Shown here: positions 7,071 to 49,421 of the stretch, in pieces
Layout of the letters: every line of letters begins with the position of its first letter
How positions within the stretch are numbered: the stretch's first letter is position 1
Source: a phage
Direction: 5' to 3' (one strand)
DNA: 64,000 bases
Assembly: GCA_018093385.1 (NCBI GenBank)
Contig: GCA_018093385.1_4808.1
Notes under the pieces: generated by a model
What the model was told of the DNA's origin: nothing
What the model saw: the letters and a program-made list of their open reading frames with translations, nothing else
The model's database searches: none
Made by a program: the position numbers and the translations under genes

Positions 7071-9446
7071 ATGAAAATTCTTGGCATAAAACTCTGGGAG
7101 AAGACGCAACCAGAAGCCGAACCAGCGGAGATGCCGCCAGGCGACCCATTGGCACCGTTTGAACGCCTTGAAAGGCGCGGCAGCGGTCAACGCTGGGAAA
7201 AGACTGAAAGCAATCGACCGACCTTTAAAACGGTTGATGACTTCCCTTTATATGAGCCTGATATCAACGGGGACGGCGTTGCAATCATCAAAGGTCGCTC
7301 AGTAGATTCAGCAACCGTATCCAAAAAAGTTATGGATAATGCCTTAAAGAACATCAGTTCAGAAGGGCAGGTGAATCCATACACAGTGCCTATTCAGTTG
7401 CAAAACTGGTACTTGTCGCAGTCATTCATCGGCTATCAAGCTTGCGCCATCATCGCGCAGCACTGGCTGGTGAACAAGGCTTGTTCCATGGTAGGTCGCG
7501 ATGCGGTCCGTAAAGGCTGGGAAGTCAAATCCAGTTCTGAGTCGGAATTGTCAGTACAGGCCAGCGAACGCCTAAAGCAAATTGATAAAGAATTTAATAT
7601 CAAAGAGCACTTAGTTGAAGCCGAACGATTCAAGAATATTTTTGGCATCCGCGTCATCATATTTGATGTGCGCAGTGATGACCCAGAATATTATAGTAAA
7701 CCTTTTAACATCGATGGTGTGACAAAAGGGTCTTATAAGGGAATCATTCAGGTTGACCCTTATTGGATGATGCCATTCTTGACGTCTGAAAACACTGCAG
7801 ACCCTGCGTCACAGCATTTCTATGATCCAGAATACTGGGTTATCAGCGGACAGCGTTATCATCGCAGCCACCTAATCATCTTGCGCAACGATGAGCCAGC
7901 TGATATTCTCAAGCCGACTTATATCTACGGCGGCATTCCTCTGACTCAGCAGATTTATGAACGTATCTATGCCGCTGAACGTACCGCTAACGAAGCGCCA
8001 TTGCTGGCGATGTCTAAGCGTACAACCACGCTGCGGACCGACGTTGACAAGGCGATTGCCAATGAGCGGTCGTTTGCCGAACGTCTGATGATGTGGATTA
8101 AGTACCGCGACAACTATGCGGTAAAAGTGCTTGGTCAGAAAGAAGAGATGGACCAGTTTGACATCAACTTGTCAGACTTCGACAGCATCATCATGAACCA
8201 GTACCAGCTGGTGGCTGCAATCGCAAAAGTGCCGTCGACGAAGCTATTAGGGACGTCACCTAAAGGCTTTAACGCCACTGGTGAGTTCGAGATGGTCAGC
8301 TATCACGAAGAATTGGAAACTTGTCAGCAGCACGATTTGACGAAGATTCTGGACCGTCACTATAAAATCCTTTTGAAATCTGAAGGTGTTGAAGTCGACG
8401 TTAAAGTGGCATGGGAGCCAGTTGGTTCACTTACTGCTACTCAGCTTGCAGAGATTAACGACAAACGAGCGAATACTGGTAAGACTCTCATTGATGCTGG
8501 CGTCATCTCCCCTGATGAAGAGCGCGACCGCATCAAGGACGACAAAAACAGCGGCTACAACCGTTTGCCAGAAGATACAGCAGAAGAAACCCCAGGGATG
8601 TCTCCAGAGAATATGGCATTGCTTGGCAAGTCTGCTGGTGAAGTTCTGCAAGGTAAAGCCGATATTGAACAGGCCAAAGCTGATGTCGTCAAGATGGGCG
8701 GCCAGTTCTATAGTGAGACTGGTATCATGCCGGAAGGTGCCGCGCGCGGTGAGTTGGCAGAAAACCCTGACAGGGCGCCAGTTGAGATCAACATGGATGA
8801 TACCGATGACGAATCAAGCCATCAGGTTGATGTCCTAACGCAACTGAAAGAAGGTCTGGAGGGTATTGCTGACTATTACCTTAAAGAAGGTCAGGATGTG
8901 GATTTTGACCCTCAAAAAGACGCAAGGTCTGTGCAGCCGTCTACCCTTCCAAGCGTAAAAGGCAATGTAGTCAACTTGCGCCACAATGTAGGGAAGATGG
9001 ATGCCTCATCGCTGCCTAAGATGAAGTTGCACGGGATGATTCTTGGTATTGAGAATCCTCGCAACAGCATTCGCAGGGGCAACAGCCTTGATGGTGAATG
9101 GGCAGTTAAGATGCCGCACCATTACGGATTTATCAAAGGCACCAAGGGCGCTGATGGTGATGAAGTCGACTGCTTTGTTGGACCAAATATGAAGTCGCCT
9201 AAAGTATTCATCATTAACCAAAATGATAATTATTCTGGCGAATTTGATGAACACAAGTGTATGCTTGGATTTGATTCAGCAGAAGAAGCGAAAGAAGCTT
9301 ATCAAGCATCATTTGGTAACGGTTGGAATGGATTTGACTCAATCCACGAATTGGATGTAAACTCATTCAAGGAGTGGTTGAAGGGTGATTGCTCTCAAGC
9401 ATATGGAGCACTCAATAATCCTACTAATTCACCGAAGCAAGGTTGA
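7071..9446 (+). CDS. portal protein with C-terminal extension
   Basis: 791 aa ORF between TerL and MuF-like gene (synteny); C-terminal ~120 aa carry pyrophosphatase-like motifs (see findings). Confidence 0.55.
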   Translation: MKILGIKLWEKTQPEAEPAEMPPGDPLAPFERLERRGSGQRWEKTESNRPTFKTVDDFPLYEPDINGDGVAIIKGRSVDSATVSKKVMDNALKNISSEGQVNPYTVPIQLQNWYLSQSFIGYQACAIIAQHWLVNKACSMVGRDAVRKGWEVKSSSESELSVQASERLKQIDKEFNIKEHLVEAERFKNIFGIRVIIFDVRSDDPEYYSKPFNIDGVTKGSYKGIIQVDPYWMMPFLTSENTADPASQHFYDPEYWVISGQRYHRSHLIILRNDEPADILKPTYIYGGIPLTQQIYERIYAAERTANEAPLLAMSKRTTTLRTDVDKAIANERSFAERLMMWIKYRDNYAVKVLGQKEEMDQFDINLSDFDSIIMNQYQLVAAIAKVPSTKLLGTSPKGFNATGEFEMVSYHEELETCQQHDLTKILDRHYKILLKSEGVEVDVKVAWEPVGSLTATQLAEINDKRANTGKTLIDAGVISPDEERDRIKDDKNSGYNRLPEDTAEETPGMSPENMALLGKSAGEVLQGKADIEQAKADVVKMGGQFYSETGIMPEGAARGELAENPDRAPVEINMDDTDDESSHQVDVLTQLKEGLEGIADYYLKEGQDVDFDPQKDARSVQPSTLPSVKGNVVNLRHNVGKMDASSLPKMKLHGMILGIENPRNSIRRGNSLDGEWAVKMPHHYGFIKGTKGADGDEVDCFVGPNMKSPKVFIINQNDNYSGEFDEHKCMLGFDSAEEAKEAYQASFGNGWNGFDSIHELDVNSFKEWLKGDCSQAYGALNNPTNSPKQG

Positions 9447-13843: not shown

Positions 13844-14983
13844 ATGACTCGCATTAGCCAAACACACTCTCGCCTCCCAGCGAGCAAGGTGCGCCCTTTT
13901 GATATGCAATCCGTCACTGACGCGGCTGTTTCCCAGCTTGCTCGTATCGGTATTGTGTTTGATTCCGCGATTGTGCGTGATCAAATTGAGCACTTAAACC
14001 GTGCAGGCGCTTTTCGCGTAGGTGACGCCGCGTTTACTGCGCCGCAGACTACTCCGTCAATCCCGACCCCGTTGCAATTCCTGCAGCAATGGCTGCCTGG
14101 CTTCGTCAAAATCATGACCGCTGCTCGTAAAATCGACGAGCTGGTTGGTATTGATACCGTTGGTCAGTGGGAAGATGCGGAAATCGTTCAGGGTATCGTT
14201 GAACCAGCTGGCACCGCAGTTGAATATGGTGATTTCACCTCTATTCCTCTGGCAAGCTGGAACGTAAACTTTGAACGTCGTTCTATCGTTCGTGGCGAAA
14301 TGGGCATGGCAGTTGGTATGCTGGAAGAAGGCCGCGCGTCTGCTATGCGTCTGAACTCCGCAGAAACCAAGCGCCAGCAGGCTGCTGTATCTCTGGAAAT
14401 CATGCGTAACGCAATCGGCTTCTATGGTTGGTACAACGGGAACAACCGCACATTCGGCTTCCTGAATGATCCAAACCTGCCAGCAGCGATGACTTCCCAC
14501 ACCACTTCCGGCTGGGCTACTGCGACTTTCCAACAGGTAACTGCAGACATCCGTTTGATGGTTCGTCAAATTCGTGTGAACTCTCAGGACCAGATTGATC
14601 CAGAGAAAGTTGACATGACTCTGGCGCTGCCGACTAACTCTATCGATTGGCTGTCCAACACCACTGACTTCGGTATTTCTGTACGTGACTGGATCACCCA
14701 GACTTATCCGAAGATGAAGATCAAATCTGCACCGGAACTCAACGGCGCACTTGGCAGTGACCCGACTTTCTTGAACGTGGCATACCTGTACGCTGATCAC
14801 ATCGATTCCTCAATTGATGGTTCAAGCGATGATGGTTCCGTATTCAGTCAGCTGGTTCAAACCAAGTTCATGACTCTGGGCGTTGAAAAGCGTGCTAAGA
14901 GCTACGTTGAAGACTACGCAAACGCAACAGCAGGCGTTCTGCTCAAGCGTCCGTTCGCAGTCGTCCGTATGACTGGTATTTAA
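13844..14983 (+). CDS. major capsid protein
   Basis: 379 aa ORF with strong RBS GGCAGGTGA, directly downstream of scaffold genes, followed by stem-loop; size and synteny typical. Confidence 0.6.
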
Positions 14984-36457: not shown

Positions 36458-37318
36458 TTAAAACTCTTCTGCGTCGGCAGGAGTTTCATTGACAGGACCA
36501 GCGGCACCGCTTGCTTCTTCCTGCTTGCTGCGGTCGATGTTAACGTTGCCGCCCACTACGTCATTGTGGAATGCCTTGGCGACTTCGTACAGACCTTTGT
36601 CCTGCACCAGACCTTCCAGCTCAAACTTCAGAACGGACCAGGTGTTGCCGTCTTTGGACTGGGATGCAGTACCCATGCGAACGATGTTCATAAAGGTCGG
36701 CGGCGTTTTCAAACCTTGCGGAGTTTGAACTTTCTTCTGCTGCAGCGCGGTCATCAGCATACGAGACGGCTTGATCATCGAAGAAGTCAAAGACAGCATG
36801 GCGCTGCCAAATTCACCCGTTTCTTCGTTCAACAGAATCACGAAGTGGTTACGTGTATCTGCATAGTAAGGAGATTTCTTCTCGTGCACTTTGCCGTTTT
36901 CGTCCGGCACAAATACCTTACCGTTGATCTCAACAGCGCGGCCTGCCGCGACTTCTGCATCAACGTGCTCTTTGGTGAATTCACCTTTAAAGCCTTTGTC
37001 GTCGGACTCGCGACCGCCCCAAAGAATGAAGGTACGTTTGAATGCGCAAGGGATGATCTGCACGCCTTTCTTACCGTCATACAACTCACCAGTAACGGTG
37101 TTGTAAAGCATGCCAGCTTTTGCGCCAGGAACGTGTTTTGGATCATCTTCGTCGACCATAGGAGACATCTTCTGCAGTACGACGATAAAAGGAATGGCAT
37201 ATGCATCGGCATCGGCACCTTCAAAACCAGCGCCAAAATCGGTCATGTCGACAAAATCAGCCATAGCGGACATCTGGGTGTTTTTCACTGCAACTTCGGT
37301 AGTTTCTTTCTTAGACAT
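36458..37318 (-). CDS. putative ssDNA-binding protein (T7 gp2.5-like)
   Basis: Acidic C-terminal tail ending in Phe (ETPADAEEF); location in replication operon. Confidence 0.4.
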   Translation of the reverse strand: MSKKETTEVAVKNTQMSAMADFVDMTDFGAGFEGADADAYAIPFIVVLQKMSPMVDEDDPKHVPGAKAGMLYNTVTGELYDGKKGVQIIPCAFKRTFILWGGRESDDKGFKGEFTKEHVDAEVAAGRAVEINGKVFVPDENGKVHEKKSPYYADTRNHFVILLNEETGEFGSAMLSLTSSMIKPSRMLMTALQQKKVQTPQGLKTPPTFMNIVRMGTASQSKDGNTWSVLKFELEGLVQDKGLYEVAKAFHNDVVGGNVNIDRSKQEEASGAAGPVNETPADAEEF

Positions 37319-38269: not shown

Positions 38270-39793
38270 TTAATTCATCTTTTTGCCGTCGAGGATGTGA
38301 TCAGCAAGCATAGATTTCATGCTCAGTGAACGCTGAATTTCTTCGTCGATGGTATCAACACCAATAAAATCAACATACAGCACGCTTGATTTGGTGCCGA
38401 TGCGGTGATTTCGGTCTTCGGATTGTTTGCGCAACTCGTTGTCATAGTTGCAAGAATAATAGATTGCCAAGTCGGCGGCGGTAAGCGTGATTCCGATGCC
38501 TGCCGCTGCAGCGTGACAAACCAAGACTTGCGTTCCACCGTTCTCGACTGTGTTTTTCTGGAAGTCATCAATCAAGAACTCGCGCTGCTCTTTTGATGTT
38601 TCACCGTTGTACACACCAGTGACCACGCCTTCAGACTCAAGCCAATCCTTAATCTGGTTCATCTCTTCCTTAAAGATGGCCCACACAATGAATTTGCGCT
38701 CTGGGTCGTCTTCCAGCACCCCTTCCACATAGTCCTTAAAGGCCGTGAATCGTGGGTTGTCTTCCATGTAGACCATCTCATCATACACCTTAACAAAGCC
38801 TGATGTCACCTGCTTCATCTTAGTGCGAGATGCGATCATCTCAAACTTAACGTTTTCTTCTTCGCCTTTGTACTCCATCAGATAGTTGTACTCATTCTTG
38901 AGTTCATCGTAAACATCGCGTTGTTTAGGCGACAACTCGAAGTCAATAAACTTGTACACCTTCTCTGGAAGGTCCGGCAAGTATTCCGCTTTTGTCGCAC
39001 GAAAATAGTGCGGTTCCATCAGCCGGATAAGCTTGTCAAGGTTCTTGTACATCGGTCGGCCAAACTGGTCTTTGCGCGGCACTTGCGGAATCCCATAGCC
39101 ATTGCCGCCGATTTTCTTGAGAATGGCCTGCATCTCTGGGTCGTGCGCTTCAAGTAGCACTGTGAATTCAGAGTTGAATGCACGGAACGATTTGGTGCCA
39201 AGCAAGCCAGCTTCAAGGAAGTGGTATTGCATGTAAATATCAGCAGGCGAGCGTGGCAGCGGCGTACCAGAAAGGATTCGACGGGCCTTTGCCAGCCGTC
39301 CCAATTCCACAACCTTGATGGAGCGTTTGGCTGTGTTATTTTTGATACGCGTCGATTCATCAATGATCATCAAACAGCGGTATTTCTTCAAGACCGACTC
39401 AATGTGTTGATAACCGACTGGTGTGTTGACGGTGTCAATGTTGAATGAGAAGATGCGCGCAGGCACTTCGCCTTCAGGGTAGTGATCAGCAAACATCTTC
39501 TCCCAAAGCGCCTTGCCCTTTTTAGTCTTCATCTTGTCATTGCCGCGCCAGTAATGACCAATCCATTTAATGGAAAGGTGCTCTGGTGCTTCACGACGAA
39601 TCCAGTTTGAGTGTACACCGTTAGGAGCGATTACAACCATGGCATCAAACGCGCCAGCAGTGAAATGCTTTTCAAACTCTGCCAAAGCAGTCCAGGTTTT
39701 GCCAAGACCCTGTTCCATGAAATAGGCAAAGTATTTTCTGCGGCCTGCTTTATCAAGCGCCAATAATTGGTGGCGCATTCCTTGTGTTTTCAT
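38270..39793 (-). CDS. SNF2-family helicase/ATPase
   Basis: Motif I GLGKT, motif II LMIIDESTRIKN (DExx box), SGTPL, C-terminal helicase domain motifs. Confidence 0.85.
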   Translation of the reverse strand: MKTQGMRHQLLALDKAGRRKYFAYFMEQGLGKTWTALAEFEKHFTAGAFDAMVVIAPNGVHSNWIRREAPEHLSIKWIGHYWRGNDKMKTKKGKALWEKMFADHYPEGEVPARIFSFNIDTVNTPVGYQHIESVLKKYRCLMIIDESTRIKNNTAKRSIKVVELGRLAKARRILSGTPLPRSPADIYMQYHFLEAGLLGTKSFRAFNSEFTVLLEAHDPEMQAILKKIGGNGYGIPQVPRKDQFGRPMYKNLDKLIRLMEPHYFRATKAEYLPDLPEKVYKFIDFELSPKQRDVYDELKNEYNYLMEYKGEEENVKFEMIASRTKMKQVTSGFVKVYDEMVYMEDNPRFTAFKDYVEGVLEDDPERKFIVWAIFKEEMNQIKDWLESEGVVTGVYNGETSKEQREFLIDDFQKNTVENGGTQVLVCHAAAAGIGITLTAADLAIYYSCNYDNELRKQSEDRNHRIGTKSSVLYVDFIGVDTIDEEIQRSLSMKSMLADHILDGKKMN

Positions 39794-43692: not shown

Positions 43693-44244
43693 TTATACAG
43701 TGTACGGAGTACCGTCTTGATTTAAGCGCACGATAAACTTCAAATCAACGCCGATGATTTCACGCGTATCAAAGATCACATAGTTGTAACGACGTTGACC
43801 AGCAATGTTCGGGTTGGTATGAGAGTCAGTTACAACTTCCTGTGCAACCTGAATACCTTCTTCGCTAAAGAACTTACGCCATTCAGCAAGTTCAGCGGCA
43901 GTCACGTGCATACCAAGGTGGCTGACCTGATTGTCATGCGCATCGATATATTCGATGTTTTCGTTAATCCAGTTGCAGCCCATTGTGTAGTCAAGGATTT
44001 CAAGCTCAAGAGGCTTACCAGCGCCGCCATCAGTACCGTTGCCAGCCTGATAGTTGAAGCGCAAGTCAGCTTCATTGGTGCAATCGTCGCGACGACCTTT
44101 AAAGTCATCAGCTTCAAATACGCGACCAGTAGCAACAACATGATCATGGAACCATTCTGTCAGGCCGATTTTAGCCAAGAAATCCTGTGCGCGCTGAGCA
44201 TCTGGAATTGACAGGGCGATTTGTTCAATTTTAAAATGTGGCAT
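43693..44244 (-). CDS. hypothetical protein, possible VOC/glyoxalase-like fold
   Basis: 183 aa; weak resemblance only (HLGMHV); assignment tentative. Confidence 0.3.
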   Translation of the reverse strand: MPHFKIEQIALSIPDAQRAQDFLAKIGLTEWFHDHVVATGRVFEADDFKGRRDDCTNEADLRFNYQAGNGTDGGAGKPLELEILDYTMGCNWINENIEYIDAHDNQVSHLGMHVTAAELAEWRKFFSEEGIQVAQEVVTDSHTNPNIAGQRRYNYVIFDTREIIGVDLKFIVRLNQDGTPYTV

Positions 44245-44340
44245 TTTGTTTCCTTAATTAAATATTATTGATTAATTACTGTGTTGTCTTCGTCCTGTTT
44301 CTTTTCAGGAGCGGGTGTGACAACTTCAAATGTTCGTGAT

Positions 44341-45024
44341 TTATTTACCAAATGGAATATCAGTACCAGACATAAAGCGCCATGCGCCTGTAATTAAGAT
44401 ATGGCGAATGAAGTCAGCAATTACTTGCGGCTCAGTCTCCAATCCATTCATCAATGCCTTTTTCTGGTATTCAGCGGCGTATTCAGGAGTCCAGCCGCGA
44501 GTCGCGCAAACTGCATCTTCAATCTGTTTAGACATGCCAGTGCCGCGCAACTTGTTAGGACTAATAGAGAATACCGTGATGCCGTACTTAGGCGTAAGTT
44601 CGTGAGCCATCTGCTTGCTGATCATAAGCGCAGCGGCCTTGGATGCATTATAACACAAGCTGGACGTCATAGGAATATGCGCAGCGTTGGAAACGATGTT
44701 GATCACAAAGCCTTTGTTGTCGATAAGACTTTTCAGCGCAGCCTGAGTCGTGTTAACGAAAGAGAATGCGTTGGTGTGCATAACGCGGTTAAACTCTTCA
44801 TAGTTTACATCTTCAAACCAATTGTTAGAGTTGACACCAGCACAGTTGATCAAGCCTTCAACATCATATGGGCTTAAAATTTCTTTCATCTGTTTAGCAT
44901 CGCGGACGTCATATCCGTATGCTGAATCGATGCCAAGCACGTTATGACCGTAAGCGCCAAGGGTGTCAAAAATAGATTTACCAAGACCGGAATTGGAACC
45001 TGTTACAACAATTACTTTTTTCAT
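44341..45024 (-). CDS. short-chain dehydrogenase/reductase (SDR)
   Basis: N-terminal TGSNSGLG dinucleotide-binding motif; catalytic Y-x-x-x-K (YNASK). Confidence 0.75.
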   Translation of the reverse strand: MKKVIVVTGSNSGLGKSIFDTLGAYGHNVLGIDSAYGYDVRDAKQMKEILSPYDVEGLINCAGVNSNNWFEDVNYEEFNRVMHTNAFSFVNTTQAALKSLIDNKGFVINIVSNAAHIPMTSSLCYNASKAAALMISKQMAHELTPKYGITVFSISPNKLRGTGMSKQIEDAVCATRGWTPEYAAEYQKKALMNGLETEPQVIADFIRHILITGAWRFMSGTDIPFGK

Positions 45025-45089
45025 TTATTTATCCTTTTTGGACTTCGTTTCGATGAGGTAAATATAACTCATCGAAACGCACAAGTAAA

Positions 45090-45965
45090 CTATTTATTGA
45101 AATTAATATTATGGGTGTTTACAAGACGTTCACACATGGCGCTATAAACACCATCGTCGTGTATTGAGTCTTCGTGCTTCAGGCCGCTGATTGCGAAGCG
45201 TGTAAGCTTGACAATCTTAAGCTCGAACAGATGCCACATGTGGTAGTCTTCCGGTGTTTTCAGCGTCACGCCATTAGGGAACAGTACCTGCATAACCTGA
45301 CCTACCATCACAGCGTTATCGCCATAGACAGCGTTGCGCTCACGGAAGGTCGCGGCCATCGCATCAAGAATATCGGCGGCGGTTGCTGGGCCTTGTGGTT
45401 CAACTTCAACAACTTTAGTCTCTTCTTTCCCTGTTGCGCTTGGATCAACTGCTAATTGCTGCACCATTTCACCTGCCTTGCAAAGATTAAATGTAAAAGC
45501 GATTTTATTTTGAGCAACGGAATTATAATACAAGGCTTCATCTTGCATCGCCGCGAGTACGTCTTGTCGGTCGTCGAATACATTAATGATTCGATAATCG
45601 CCGTGCCGCAAAGCGTGCGATAGCCATCCAGATTTCATAATAGTTGATGGACGTTTGTCGCCAGAGTCTCTCATCTTGATTGTAAATTCATCAAAAGGGA
45701 AAACATTGTCCAGACGTTCAAAAGTCACTTGTCTGTATTTTTCTGGCCTTGCAGTCCAATATTCAACCGCCTCACCGCGAAGAGATGCCGACTCTACTGC
45801 TGATGCAATGTGAGGATAGAACTGATCATAACCAATACCGCTGTGATAGTCATCATAGTCTGACAACGGACCTGCCACCTTGATGCGGTCTAAGCGCCAA
45901 CGGTCATCAAACAGCGTTCCGTCAAGGTCGAATACGTTTAAGATTTCGCTGTTTTTAATGCTCAT
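45090..45965 (-). CDS. HAD-family phosphatase fused to a C-terminal nucleotide-metabolism-associated domain
   Basis: HAD motif I FDLDGTLFD near N-terminus; C-terminal FRERNAVYGDNAVMVGQ ... EDSIHDDGVY resembles MazG-like/DUF1599-type helical domains (from memory). Confidence 0.5.
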   Translation of the reverse strand: MSIKNSEILNVFDLDGTLFDDRWRLDRIKVAGPLSDYDDYHSGIGYDQFYPHIASAVESASLRGEAVEYWTARPEKYRQVTFERLDNVFPFDEFTIKMRDSGDKRPSTIMKSGWLSHALRHGDYRIINVFDDRQDVLAAMQDEALYYNSVAQNKIAFTFNLCKAGEMVQQLAVDPSATGKEETKVVEVEPQGPATAADILDAMAATFRERNAVYGDNAVMVGQVMQVLFPNGVTLKTPEDYHMWHLFELKIVKLTRFAISGLKHEDSIHDDGVYSAMCERLVNTHNINFNK

Positions 45966-46765
45966 CCTTTTGATACTCCATCTTTAGCAACTGGATTGTT
46001 GGTGATTGGCATTGCACTCCAAAACTGGATGCGCAACTCTTCTTGCTGTGCCGTGGTATCCATCCAATCACGATACCAAGGGCAATGGGCTTTGCCATGA
46101 CGAGGAAACGCGCACTTACCCATACCGATGCACTGGGGCTGTAGTAAAGGATTGGCCCACGGGTGCACCTTAAGGACTTCCGCAACCATTGCACGGAATA
46201 CTTCTTGATACTCGCCTTGAGTACGCGTGCACAAGCGGTTAGAGGCCATTTGTTGCAGAGTGCGCAAGTTGAACTTTGCCATGATATGCGTTTGCATATT
46301 AGAAGGCAACACGGCACGTGCATCTTGAATCTCTGCGCCAGCCGCGCGAAGTTCTTGGTATAGGGCGTCAATGGTTGCCATTGCATCATCCCATTTCTCT
46401 GCCAGTTCAGCAGCCTTCTCGTCATGACGAGTCCATCCCTTTGGATCATCCTCTGGGTAAGTAAATTTGGCAGGACGAATCGCATCAAATGCTGACGACT
46501 CCTGAGCGCGGCTTGTGCGTTCTTGATATGCACCTGTGCGTGTGCGCACCATCTGATGAGTCATATTCTTTGATACATCAGTGATGTCAAAGATATAGTC
46601 CACAAAGTCAAAAGGCGACTTGATTGTATCAAGCATGTAGCGCCAGTGCTCTTGCTTCTCTGATTCTGTCATCTCAGAGACTGGCTTACCAGTCATGCGC
46701 GTGTTCTTTGTTTCCAGCAAAAGGTCAAGTGCATCTTGGGTGTATCGAATTAATTCAACTTTCAT
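45962..46765 (-). CDS. ThyX-like flavin-dependent thymidylate synthase homolog (divergent)
   Basis: THQMVRTRTGAYQERTS parallels the ThyX motif RHR-x7/8-S but with RTR; 267 aa. Confidence 0.55.
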   Translation of the reverse strand: MKVELIRYTQDALDLLLETKNTRMTGKPVSEMTESEKQEHWRYMLDTIKSPFDFVDYIFDITDVSKNMTHQMVRTRTGAYQERTSRAQESSAFDAIRPAKFTYPEDDPKGWTRHDEKAAELAEKWDDAMATIDALYQELRAAGAEIQDARAVLPSNMQTHIMAKFNLRTLQQMASNRLCTRTQGEYQEVFRAMVAEVLKVHPWANPLLQPQCIGMGKCAFPRHGKAHCPWYRDWMDTTAQQEELRIQFWSAMPITNNPVAKDGVSKG

Positions 46766-46778
46766 TTTAATTATCCTA

Positions 46779-47225
46779 TTAACGGTAATTCACTAGTTGC
46801 TGATCACCAGAGAAGGTGCAATGATAAACGAATTGTGCGTTATAAAGCAACTGAAAACTTTTCTTTGGTTCATTATTAGAACTCATTGATGTAAAGATTT
46901 CTGCACCAGAACGGTTTTCACCAATCAGGTTAATAAAGCCGCCAGTTGAACGAGGCTGAACGAAAGTGAAACGCTGCATCCACGGAGTCCGGTTGGCACC
47001 TTTTCCGGTGAATCCCTGAATCTGAATATTCAGACCTTCTTGCTCGTTCACACCGATGTAAGTGGTAATTGTTGCGCCAGTCGTCGCTGCGGTCTTGCCG
47101 TCCATCGCTTCGCAATCGTAAACAGCGATTGAATCGGAAGTACGGACAGCGGCTTCAGTCGCTTCCATATACATGGTTCCGAGAATAGCAGTCGCGGCAA
47201 GCGCGATTCCAGTGATGCGTTTCAT
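46779..47225 (-). CDS. secreted/periplasmic protein
   Basis: Signal peptide-like MKRITGIALAATAILGTMYMEATEAA. Confidence 0.45.
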   Translation of the reverse strand: MKRITGIALAATAILGTMYMEATEAAVRTSDSIAVYDCEAMDGKTAATTGATITTYIGVNEQEGLNIQIQGFTGKGANRTPWMQRFTFVQPRSTGGFINLIGENRSGAEIFTSMSSNNEPKKSFQLLYNAQFVYHCTFSGDQQLVNYR

Positions 47226-47290
47226 TTTCGTTTCCTCTATGAGTTCTGCTTCAATGATTAAAGTATACGCCCATTGAAGCAGAAAGCAAA

Positions 47291-48286
47291 TTATTTATTA
47301 GCAATATAAGCAAATTTTTGATAGTTATTTGCTTTGATGAGTTTTTCAACTTCAGCAAGGTCATGAGCGACGTCATCAAGCAAAATGTTTCGCCAAGTAG
47401 CGAATCGACCGACACTAAATACGTTCAAATCCATAGTCAACTGGAGCAGTAAGGCGTGGCGCAAGTCTTTCGGAATGTCGACAATTTTGCCATACTTCTG
47501 GTCAACCTTTTCAACTTCTTCCAAAGAGATGTCATTCCATGAAAGACCAAAAGCGGTAAGAACTTCATCCACTTCTGCACGCAGCTTCATGTCGCGATAA
47601 CGGGTAATGCCGCCAGCGGCTTCAACTGCTGCCGCGCTGACGCTTACCAATGGAATTGTTTCAATGATCAGCGTGTCACCAGTGATTGATGCGCGGTAAG
47701 TCCTTACAGAATAGTCAGGGAAGTAAATTGTTTGATAAAGTTCACACTTGCGCTTAATCTTAAAACGATAAACGCGAATATTTGCCTTATCAAACGAGAA
47801 GTCGAGCTTTTGATCAATACCAGCAAGCTTCATCATGACTGGCAGCGGCGATGTGTTGATGATTGGCGTCTCGCTATAGCCGCAAAGCGTGTCGACCGGA
47901 GTATTAAAGAATATACGGTCACCCAGTTTATCGACAAGTTGATCATAAAAGTCATCCGGCGCTATGTAGCGCGTAGCAGTTTGAAGCTTCATGATTGAGC
48001 GGCTGCCAAACTGGTTGGTGACTTTCATAGAGTACATATTGGCAAGGTTAATCGGGCAGTGGCCGTGATAGTAGTTGCCACGAAAATACACAGCCTTATC
48101 GACTGTCACGGCCTTAAAGGGGATTCCGGTAATACGGCTTACTTCTTCGCCGCGAAATCGTAGCAGCGCCTTGTGCTGCGCGACGCGTTCGCCTGCTTCG
48201 TACACAATAGAGTTCGGAAAGTGACAAGCCGTGATAAGTCCTGCCAGTCCGCCGCCGATAATCATTACAGGTTGTTTCATGTTCAT
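47291..48286 (-). CDS. FAD/NAD(P)-binding oxidoreductase
   Basis: N-terminal Rossmann motif VMIIGGGLAGLITA (GxGxxG). Confidence 0.55.
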   Translation of the reverse strand: MNMKQPVMIIGGGLAGLITACHFPNSIVYEAGERVAQHKALLRFRGEEVSRITGIPFKAVTVDKAVYFRGNYYHGHCPINLANMYSMKVTNQFGSRSIMKLQTATRYIAPDDFYDQLVDKLGDRIFFNTPVDTLCGYSETPIINTSPLPVMMKLAGIDQKLDFSFDKANIRVYRFKIKRKCELYQTIYFPDYSVRTYRASITGDTLIIETIPLVSVSAAAVEAAGGITRYRDMKLRAEVDEVLTAFGLSWNDISLEEVEKVDQKYGKIVDIPKDLRHALLLQLTMDLNVFSVGRFATWRNILLDDVAHDLAEVEKLIKANNYQKFAYIANK

Positions 48287-48364
48287 TTGTCCTTTGTGGG
48301 TGATATGATAAGTATAATAGCTAAATTATCTTACAGCAACAAGTCATTTTATTTAGTACAGACG

Positions 48365-48391
48365 AAAAAAGACCCACAACTAGTGTGGGTC
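48365..48391 (-). terminator. rho-independent terminator
   Basis: GACCCACA-ACTAGT-TGTGGGTC hairpin with U-run on minus strand. Confidence 0.6.
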
Positions 48392-48419
48392 AATTACCGC
48401 TACATAACCGTCCTAGAGG

Positions 48420-49268
48420 TTATTCTGCTTGATCGTCGTGCTCTTCGGCATCTGCTTCGGATTCAACATCGATGAACTCGATGTGGCCCATCTCTTCCAG
48501 TTTGCTCAGGTAAGAGCGAACTGAAGCGCCAAACAGCTGATCTTTAACTTTTTCACCCAGCTCGTCGATAGACTGCGGCTGACCGATTTCACCTTCTTTG
48601 ATCGCAGCCAGTACGCGACCACGGGTGGAATGTTCTTGCGGCTGGCTCAGGCCGTTTCCGGTGTAAACAAAGTGAGTTGCTTTAGCGCGACGCTGACCAT
48701 TAGCTTTCTTGGCGGCTTTACGCTCTGCAATCGCTTTGCGACGCTCTTCAGCTTCTTTCTTACGCTGTTCTTTCTGTTGTTCTGCAGCTTCTTTCGCCGC
48801 GATCTTAGCAGCTTCACGCTCTGCCTTGCGTTTCGCTTTCGCTTCTTCTTTAGCCTTTTCTTTTTCGGCTTTCGCTTCTGCACGGGCCTGATCACGTTCA
48901 GCCTTTTTCGCCGCAGCTTGTTCAGCTTTCAGGCGCTTGGCTTCTTCTTTCGCCTTTGCCTTTTCAATTTCTTTAGCGGCTTTAGCGGCTTCACGCTCTG
49001 CCTTCTTAGCAGCAGCCTTTTCAGCACGCTCTGCAGCCTTCTTAGCGGCTTCTTCAGCACGCTTCTGAGCCTTCTCGTCAGCAGCCTGCTTGCGTTTCAG
49101 CGCAGCTTCTTCACGCTTGGCTTGTTTTTCCTGCTCACGCTTCTGGCGTTTTTCTTCGGCTTCTTTCTTTTTAGCCAGGCGTTTTTCTTCAGCCACGCGA
49201 CGACGTTCTGCTGCGGCTGCTTGTTTTTCTTCTTTAGATAATACTTTGATTGCTTCGGCCATATTCAC
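48420..49268 (-). CDS. Lys/Ala/Glu-rich low-complexity protein with globular C-terminal domain
   Basis: ~200 aa of KAAEKAAKE-type repeats followed by a non-repetitive ~80 aa C-terminus. Confidence 0.5.
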   Translation of the reverse strand: MNMAEAIKVLSKEEKQAAAAERRRVAEEKRLAKKKEAEEKRQKREQEKQAKREEAALKRKQAADEKAQKRAEEAAKKAAERAEKAAAKKAEREAAKAAKEIEKAKAKEEAKRLKAEQAAAKKAERDQARAEAKAEKEKAKEEAKAKRKAEREAAKIAAKEAAEQQKEQRKKEAEERRKAIAERKAAKKANGQRRAKATHFVYTGNGLSQPQEHSTRGRVLAAIKEGEIGQPQSIDELGEKVKDQLFGASVRSYLSKLEEMGHIEFIDVESEADAEEHDDQAE

Positions 49269-49421
49269 AGTCCTTAAATAAATTAGTTTATTTTATATTC
49301 CCCGTTTGGGATAACTTAATTATGCCTTCAGTCGCCGCCAGTAGCAACTAAAAACTATGGCGGCAATGCCACTTTAATTAAACTGATTTTCAGTTTTATT
49401 TTTCGTAAATTTACGTCAACA

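Follow-up and report, generated by a model that had tools for sequence, protein, structure and literature searches.

The window, a stretch of phage DNA of 64,000 nucleotides (nt) from contig GCA_018093385.1_4808.1, carries on its minus strand an open reading frame (ORF) at 48420..49268 which an earlier note had described as encoding a highly repetitive Lys/Ala/Glu-rich protein of the replication operon. The mechanical start of this ORF is a GTG. The ATG at 49262 is the likely start, since AAGGA is found 8 nt upstream and the same start is annotated in phages Bas101, Mansfield and vB_Eco4M-7. Translation from this ATG yields a protein of 280 amino acids (aa), 31.4 kDa and pI 9.5, with orthologues in vB_Eco4M-7 (gp83) and in Pbunavirus 14-1 (ORF66). 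On one side the gene borders a Dda-like helicase gene, on the other a block of genes that are Glf-like, ThyX, PNK-like, FabG-like and glyoxalase-like. The features of the gene and its flanks are given below; structure predictions are from AlphaFold2 (AF2) and are scored by the predicted local distance difference test (pLDDT), and pN/pS denotes non-synonymous relative to synonymous differences.

48420..49262, minus strand: coding sequence (CDS) of the 280-aa protein; ATG at 49262, stop codon at 48420..48422; PHROG 4765
48699..49247, minus strand: rod, residues 6-188, a single predicted continuous alpha-helix of ~27 nm (AF2 pLDDT >90; periodicity; pN/pS)
48672..48698, minus strand: basic arm GQRRAKATH, residues 189-197, leading into beta1; RR and TH invariant (three alignments)
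48468..48677, minus strand: predicted winged-helix domain, residues 196-265
48423..48467, minus strand: acidic C-terminal tail, residues 266-280, net charge about -8, predicted disordered
49271..49275, minus strand: Shine-Dalgarno-like AAGGA, 8 nt before the ATG (from the sequence; Mansfield has a ribosome-binding site annotation here)
49319..49347, minus strand: sigma-70-like promoter candidate TTGCTA-17-CATAAT, invariant in four Wifceviruses
49357..49372, minus strand: weak terminator-like hairpin, 3' of the Dda-like helicase gene and upstream of the promoter candidate
48361..48391, minus strand: intrinsic terminator, 8-bp stem with 5 G-C pairs and a T6 run; GACCCACACTAGTTGTGGGTC+T6 at 48391..48371 (from the sequence)

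The 5 kb surrounding the gene are 92-96% identical to 29 genomes of Wifcevirus, of which Bas101 and TH32 are the closest. Wifceviruses are myophages of E. coli and Shigella with genomes of ~68 kb, distantly related to the Pseudomonas Pbunavirus group, and they are noted for replicating very fast (PMC11990801). The intrinsic terminator begins 29 nt past the stop codon, is invariant in the four Wifceviruses compared, and is annotated or found at the equivalent position in Mansfield, phiKTN6, 14-1 and Kyle. The promoter-like region and the terminator pointed out by the earlier note are thus both borne out and both conserved, and the gene appears to form its own monocistronic transcription unit. 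Its assignment to a replication operon holds as far as the location within the replication and nucleotide-metabolism block is concerned, but not for the operon itself.

In the same four genomes the upstream intergenic region (49263..49421, 160 nt) is ~99% and the downstream region (48287..48419) ~96% identical, whereas synonymous sites within the CDS differ by ~31%. The upstream region harbours the palindromes CGTAAATTTACG and CTGAAAATCAG together with the terminator-like hairpin and the promoter candidate. No RNA family was found in the flanks of the gene with Rfam, and the fold of its 5' untranslated region was no better than that of shuffles. At the DNA level the only repeat in the gene is one trivial 9-bp x 2.3 array, and a recent DNA tandem repeat was rejected as its origin. 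An antisense ORF of 203 aa (48630..49241, plus strand; rich in F, L and S) and several ORFs of 40-80 aa inside the gene are due to its biased codon composition, and were rejected as genes.

Ala, Lys, Glu and Arg make up 88% of residues 6-188, and hydrophobic residues 4%. Between residues 16 and 195 the composition is 31% Ala, 24% Lys, 21% Glu and 12% Arg, with a net charge of +26. The Shannon entropy of the helix is 2.45 bits, compared to 3.95 bits for residues 196-262, which have an ordinary composition. In single-sequence AF2 runs one helix was predicted over residues 10-188 with pLDDT >90. The repeats preceding a compact C-terminal domain, as noted earlier, are confirmed; they extend over ~183 residues and not ~200, and the acidic tail beyond the domain had not been mentioned. 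Within the rod a degenerate duplication of 33 aa is seen (residues 79-111 versus 112-144), and opposite-charge pairs at i/i+3,4 are modestly enriched (70 versus 57.8 +/- 5.7). No heptad seam was found in the rod. A canonical coiled coil is unlikely because of the 4% hydrophobic content and the missing heptad seam, and was rejected; the rod is probably not a coiled coil.

The basic residues of the rod are arranged with precision. Lys/Arg periodicity shows a sharp peak at 3.67 residues (98 degrees, 11/3), and when 500 shuffles were carried out as control the observed value was reached by 0/500 in eight of nine homologues. When the rod is written in rows of 11, Lys or Arg occupies positions a, d, e and h in 10, 10, 12 and 12 of 17 rows, and Glu or Asp occupies them in 0, 0, 2 and 0. 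Lys/Arg at hendecad positions a, d/e and h form one basic ridge, whose phase stays within ~45 degrees over 183 residues. The same peak recurs in the family: of 18 representatives whose charged stretch reaches 60 aa or more, 13 have it. One homologue (P0010) contains explicit 11-mers, AAEKAxKAEQK. Within Wifcevirus the rod has accumulated 36-37 synonymous and 3-4 non-synonymous differences and zero indels. Its pN/pS of 0.02-0.03 is tighter than that of the winged helix (0.07), and the rod is under very strong purifying selection. In place of the low-complexity linker suggested earlier, the region is a precise, selected 11-residue charge pattern. Across genera the rod measures 85-184 residues (~13-27 nm), and its net charge is positive in every homologue compared (+2 to +24).

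In the C-terminal module, residues 205-265 were predicted with pLDDT ~90 from a 12-sequence alignment. The predicted elements are beta1 (197-200), helix 1 (213-222), beta2 (229-231), helix 2 (232-238), helix 3 (248-257, SVRSYLSKLE) and beta3 (261-264). This order, three helices with a small beta-sheet, is that of the winged-helix fold class. Three sets of residues are invariant in the family: RR..TH in the arm GxRRxKATH, PQ..S.R where helix 1 begins, and G..RS...KL in helix 3. The buried side of helix 3 would consist of V, L and L, leaving R, S, S and K exposed as expected for a recognition helix. The nucleoid-associated or DNA-binding role put forward in the earlier note fits this predicted winged helix with conserved Arg, Ser and Lys on its putative recognition helix.

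Residues 263-280 are acidic, with a net charge of -9. The sequence of the tail is not conserved; its acidic character is kept in most homologues, where its net charge is usually negative (-3 to -15), and the tail is missing in P0010 and P0011. No Pfam match was obtained at E <= 1 for the protein, nor at E <= 10 for the C-terminal domain. Searches of NCBIfam and of PDB sequences returned nothing usable for either the rod or the domain, and Foldseek against BFVD returned orthologues only. The predicted fold is a generic winged helix, and the sequence family is new.

For each of the 71 ORFs of the window, the share of codons that are optimal in E. coli was determined. The gene ranks highest with 0.759, followed by the major capsid gene with 0.737, the median being 0.506. 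Arg is encoded by CGT or CGC throughout (25/25), and Leu by CTG in 9 of 10 cases. The protein of vB_Eco4M-7, which differs from that of the window at 12 of 280 positions (96% identical), was found by mass spectrometry in CsCl-purified phage, as vB_Eco4M-7_83 or "TolA protein" (Necel et al. 2020, PMC7048862). Detection was by 7 peptides covering 25.8% of the sequence, with a score of 1197.6. Among the 33 proteins listed it takes rank 7, ahead of portal, capsid and sheath; the orthologue of ECML-117 was found likewise (PMC7048862). The limited coverage is explained by the fact that only 43% of the protein gives tryptic peptides of 6-35 residues. Expression, the point on which the earlier note had made its proposal depend, is therefore seen for the orthologue. 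This is a genuine gene, with an orthologue that is produced and is abundant in phage preparations. In the window the gene is probably very highly expressed. A Pam3_Gp34-like, a glyoxalase-like and a FabG-like protein are the other "non-structural" proteins in the mass-spectrometry lists of purified Wifceviruses. As such codon-optimised non-structural proteins are co-detected, the signal is read mainly as very high abundance and not as specific packaging.

The gene is conserved in every relative examined. By tblastn the C-terminal domain was found in 357 phage records, ~290 of them from Pseudomonas phages of the Pbunavirus type; the others belong to Wifcevirus, Kylevirus, Serratia phages, Bcepfunavirus, Carpasinavirus and an Aeromonas phage. 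The same layout was present in all full-length homologues inspected. A profile search of 1.84 billion cluster representatives recovered only 45 relatives, and a word-indexed protein search few. In PHROGs only phrog_4765 was matched, which carries no functional annotation. The gene lies directly downstream of a Dda-like SF1B helicase gene in Wifcevirus, Pbunavirus, Kylevirus, Bcepfunavirus, Carpasinavirus, the Aeromonas phage and a metagenomic contig. In the most distant relatives the rod is replaced by an unrelated domain of ~60 aa, phrog_4730, and the invariant residues of the arm, helix 1 and helix 3 persist. As these relatives keep the arm and winged helix and swap the rod, the C-terminal module is the conserved functional unit.

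A subgroup from uncultured phages (P0036-P0045) has this architecture, as seen in IMG/VR UViG_3300042887_002926 (L021; 6421..7011 and 7911..8564). It carries the same arm and winged helix, and its alternative N-terminal domain, phrog_4730, has the motif L..TYNALTGK...FE.RAIAE.RV. A second gene with only the phrog_4730 domain is found nearby in L021.

Database names for the family are in conflict. The records of JG024, KPP12, phiKTN6, SCUT-S1 and tabernarius give "structural protein", those of FEC19, vB_Eco4M-7, ECML-117, Epa14, MTx and BcepF1 give "TolA", and the original GenBank records of 14-1 and SN give hypothetical protein. No traceable experimental source was found for either "structural protein" or "TolA", and the papers on phages KTN6, JG024, NH-4 and Banzai do not mention the protein. 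The conflicting names have spread by similarity.

Taken together, the capsid-level codon bias, the own transcription unit, the winged helix with its basic arm and the selected, basic-ridged rod lead us to favour, tentatively, an abundant, stoichiometric DNA-binding architectural or nucleoid-associated phage protein of the replication phase. In such a protein the arm GxRRxKATH and the winged helix would anchor the molecule on DNA, with contacts made by conserved residues of helix 3 (Arg, Ser, Lys) and by the Ser-x-Arg that opens helix 1. The N-terminal 183 residues would form a stiff, probably monomeric helical rod of ~27 nm, in which a Lys/Arg every 11 residues produces a straight basic ridge flanked by Glu. 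This ridge could lie along, or bridge to, a neighbouring polyanion, most likely DNA. The acidic tail might balance the charge, either folding back and limiting unspecific binding or recruiting a partner. Capsid-like amounts of the protein would be needed during replication, alongside the Dda-like helicase. That DNA is bound, what the ridge contacts, what the tail does and which purpose the protein serves are all inferred.

Several observations weigh against this proposal. DNA binding is a deduction for all members of the family, and abundance is gauged indirectly, by codon bias and mass-spectrometry score. A straight alpha-helix is unable to track the DNA groove over 27 nm. The core of the winged helix is slightly acidic (net -3), and Foldseek against PDB gave no significant match to the C-terminal domain (best E = 0.16). 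Outside Wifcevirus the net charge of the whole protein ranges from -7 to +3, and a simple polycationic condensation of DNA is not conserved because this charge is near zero or negative. A bolder version, in which the protein is the most heavily expressed, linker-histone-like component of a small phage "chromatin" that coats the replicating, thymidine-hypermodified genome by means of its winged helix and 27-nm basic-ridged rod, is moved or stripped off by the SNF2-family translocase and the Dda-like helicase and is partly packaged with the DNA, is a long shot.

The constant linkage to the Dda-like helicase gene would also be accounted for by a replisome or recombination adaptor, whose winged helix binds a protein partner (the Dda-like helicase, a polymerase or a host factor) with the rod as spacer. 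The acidic tail would then act like the C-terminal tails of single-stranded DNA-binding protein (SSB), gp32 and gp2.5, and the winged helix like RPA32C. RPA32C, Stn1, PBP2 and PriA-WH are among the fold matches of the domain, and no SSB is annotated anywhere in the whole genome of Bas101, a carefully annotated Wifcevirus. We nevertheless regard the adaptor as unlikely. The tail lacks a conserved sequence and a terminal aromatic residue in addition to being dispensed with by P0010 and P0011; the conserved exposed residues (Arg, Ser, Lys, Gln) are typical for nucleic-acid contacts; the distant homologues in L021 keep the module without an upstream Dda gene; there is no OB fold; and a codon bias at the level of the capsid is unusual for an adaptor. 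A DNA-associated protein that enters the head together with the genome and leaves it on ejection, for instance as a shield of the incoming DNA against restriction, is a shade less likely again. It would agree with the high score in CsCl-purified virions of two Wifceviruses, with the "(putative) structural protein" annotation in JG024, KPP12, phiKTN6 and SCUT-S1, and with the report that Wifceviruses are fairly restriction-resistant (PMC11990801). That label has no traceable source and is absent from the 14-1 and SN records, however, and the same preparations held other non-structural proteins (gp70, glyoxalase-like, FabG-like), whose genes come next in codon optimality, which suggests carry-over of abundant proteins. 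The Pbunavirus homologue S1_069 is absent among the 31 proteins of DNA-free SCUT-S1 ghosts, from which it may have been lost together with the DNA. FoX6 gp55c is not among the proteins which its authors relabelled as verified after virion mass spectrometry, and the gene itself is placed within the replication block.

The neighbourhood raises another explanation, that of a component or reader of a thymidine-hypermodification system, which would bind the phage genome and so direct or protect the modified T of TG motifs. A 2025 preprint reports a sugar-derived hypermodified thymidine in the DNA of Pbunavirus, ~25% of T and in TG context (PMC12191111). The gene borders the Glf-like, ThyX, PNK-like, FabG-like and glyoxalase-like block, and in distant homologues of the L021 type the order winged-helix protein, Glf-like (44% identity), ThyX (38% identity) is kept. 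Shared gene order may, on the other hand, merely reflect common descent; in BCSR52 and the P0010 contig neither a Glf-like nor a ThyX gene adjoins the gene, the protein has no enzyme-like or base-flipping domain, and we consider this explanation quite unlikely. The predicted winged-helix fold with its highly conserved recognition helix would suit a sequence-specific transcription regulator, such as a factor for the non-sigma-70 middle or late promoters of phage 14-1, where promoters with the CTGGG motif need phage factors to be active in E. coli (PMC10914365). The authors of that study proposed gp12 as candidate. A regulator is very unlikely here, since the highest codon bias of the genome and the high mass-spectrometry score imply a stoichiometric and not a regulatory role, and a selected 183-residue rod is without precedent in such regulators. 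Least probable is a TolA-like membrane tether, whose basic ridge would rest against the anionic face of the inner membrane and hold DNA or a complex there. Composition and length do resemble TolA domain II, some records are named TolA, and helices with an 11-residue period, as in apolipoproteins, alpha-synuclein and LEA-3, typically rest flat against a surface. Yet the protein has neither a transmembrane segment nor a hydrophobic face (4% hydrophobic), which also counts against the membrane-tethering role raised by the earlier note.

Comparison with TolA itself led to rejection of this identity, as every TolA-specific test failed (anchor, domain III, helix pattern and gene context). E. coli TolA has an N-terminal anchor with a Kyte-Doolittle 19-residue maximum of 2.45 at residue 14, compared to a maximum of 0.18 in the phage protein. 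In place of TolA domain III a winged helix is predicted, and no TolA family of Pfam or NCBIfam was matched. TolA domain II is similar to the phage rod in being Ala/Lys/Glu-rich, helical and of comparable length and composition, but it lacks the ridge: its 11/3 Lys/Arg power at 98 degrees is 0.17, below the shuffle mean, versus 4.5 in the phage rod. The tolA gene is found with tolQ, tolR, tolB and pal, whereas the phage gene has Dda-like helicase, Glf-like and ThyX neighbours. The TolA-like character suggested in the earlier note is accordingly not upheld.

The resemblance to histone H1, also suggested there, holds for the layout and the fold class and fails for family membership. Like linker histones H1/H5, the phage protein joins a small winged-helix domain to a long, charged, K/A-rich extension, and is abundant and presumably stoichiometric. 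The Linker_histone family was not matched, however, and the yeast H1 globular domain came up only with a Foldseek E of 2.2. Linker histones have a basic disordered tail, whereas the phage extension is N-terminal, contains 21% Glu, is predicted as a stable helix (pLDDT >90) and bears a one-sided Lys/Arg ridge. The acidic C-terminal tail and the net positive charge that is not conserved across genera are further differences. Membership in the linker-histone family was rejected on the missing Pfam match, the Glu-rich helical extension and the unconserved charge.

ER/K single alpha-helix domains, e.g. those of myosins, are rich in Glu and Lys/Arg, poor in hydrophobic residues and form a single long, monomeric helix which is stabilised by i/i+4 salt bridges. 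The phage rod is alike in its very high Glu and Lys/Arg content, few hydrophobic residues, predicted single helix, modestly enriched opposite-charge pairs and likely use as a stiff spacer. It differs in having 31% Ala and in confining its basic residues to the ridge, instead of a uniformly charged surface. A second group of comparison are the amphipathic helices with 11-residue repeats, i.e. those of apolipoproteins, alpha-synuclein, group-3 LEA proteins and the 33-mers of perilipin-4, in which the 11/3 periodicity gives one straight face. The phage family shares this periodicity, the 33-residue duplication and the 11-mers of P0010, but the straight face of its rod is Lys/Arg and not hydrophobic, and the rod is fused to a winged helix in a phage replication context. 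With SSB, gp32 and gp2.5 the protein shares the acidic C-terminal tail and not the OB-fold core, which is replaced by the helical rod and winged helix. Systems combining a DNA- or partner-binding winged helix with an elongated helical element have no detectable sequence homology to the protein, whose helix is without a hydrophobic seam. By analogy, an acidic tail beside a putative DNA-binding module suggests autoinhibition.

Among therapeutic Pseudomonas phages, the Pbunaviruses are some of the most widely used. In the genome described here, the gene with the strongest expression signature is one that all relatives examined conserve and that is misnamed in databases. The anatomy and the expression signature are new; the family was previously known only as hypothetical protein. 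If the protein is an architectural one that coats DNA, it would represent a new layout, a winged helix with a basic-ridged hendecad rod, and would bear on the organisation, protection and replication of hypermodified phage DNA. If it is an abundant adaptor instead, the interest is modest and at the level of the family. The hendecad Lys/Arg ridge is a clean design principle which can be tested by mutagenesis.

The genes of the adjoining block and those that rank high in codon usage are as follows.

13844..14983, plus strand: major capsid gene, next after the gene described here in codon ranking
36458..37318, minus strand: Pam3_Gp34-like protein, 286 aa, codon rank 3
43693..44244, minus strand: glyoxalase-like protein, codon rank 4
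44341..45024, minus strand: FabG-like short-chain dehydrogenase/reductase (SDR), codon rank 8
~45.0-46.0 kb, minus strand: PNK/phosphatase-like protein
45962..46765, minus strand: ThyX
46779..47225, minus strand: 148-aa protein with a signal-peptide-like N-terminus, high codon ranking
47291..48286, minus strand: Glf/UGM-like flavoprotein

The Pam3_Gp34-like, glyoxalase-like, 148-aa and FabG-like proteins are products of uncharacterised genes in the replication block. The block 43693..48286 on the minus strand, which adjoins the gene, resembles a nucleotide or DNA-modification pathway and is common to Wifceviruses. Elsewhere in the window a SNF2-family translocase of 507 aa is encoded at 38270..39793 on the minus strand (SNF2-rel_dom, E = 8.6e-22, plus Helicase_C). 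Its Pbunavirus counterpart has been likened to the remodelers Ino80/CHD1L (PMC12390725).

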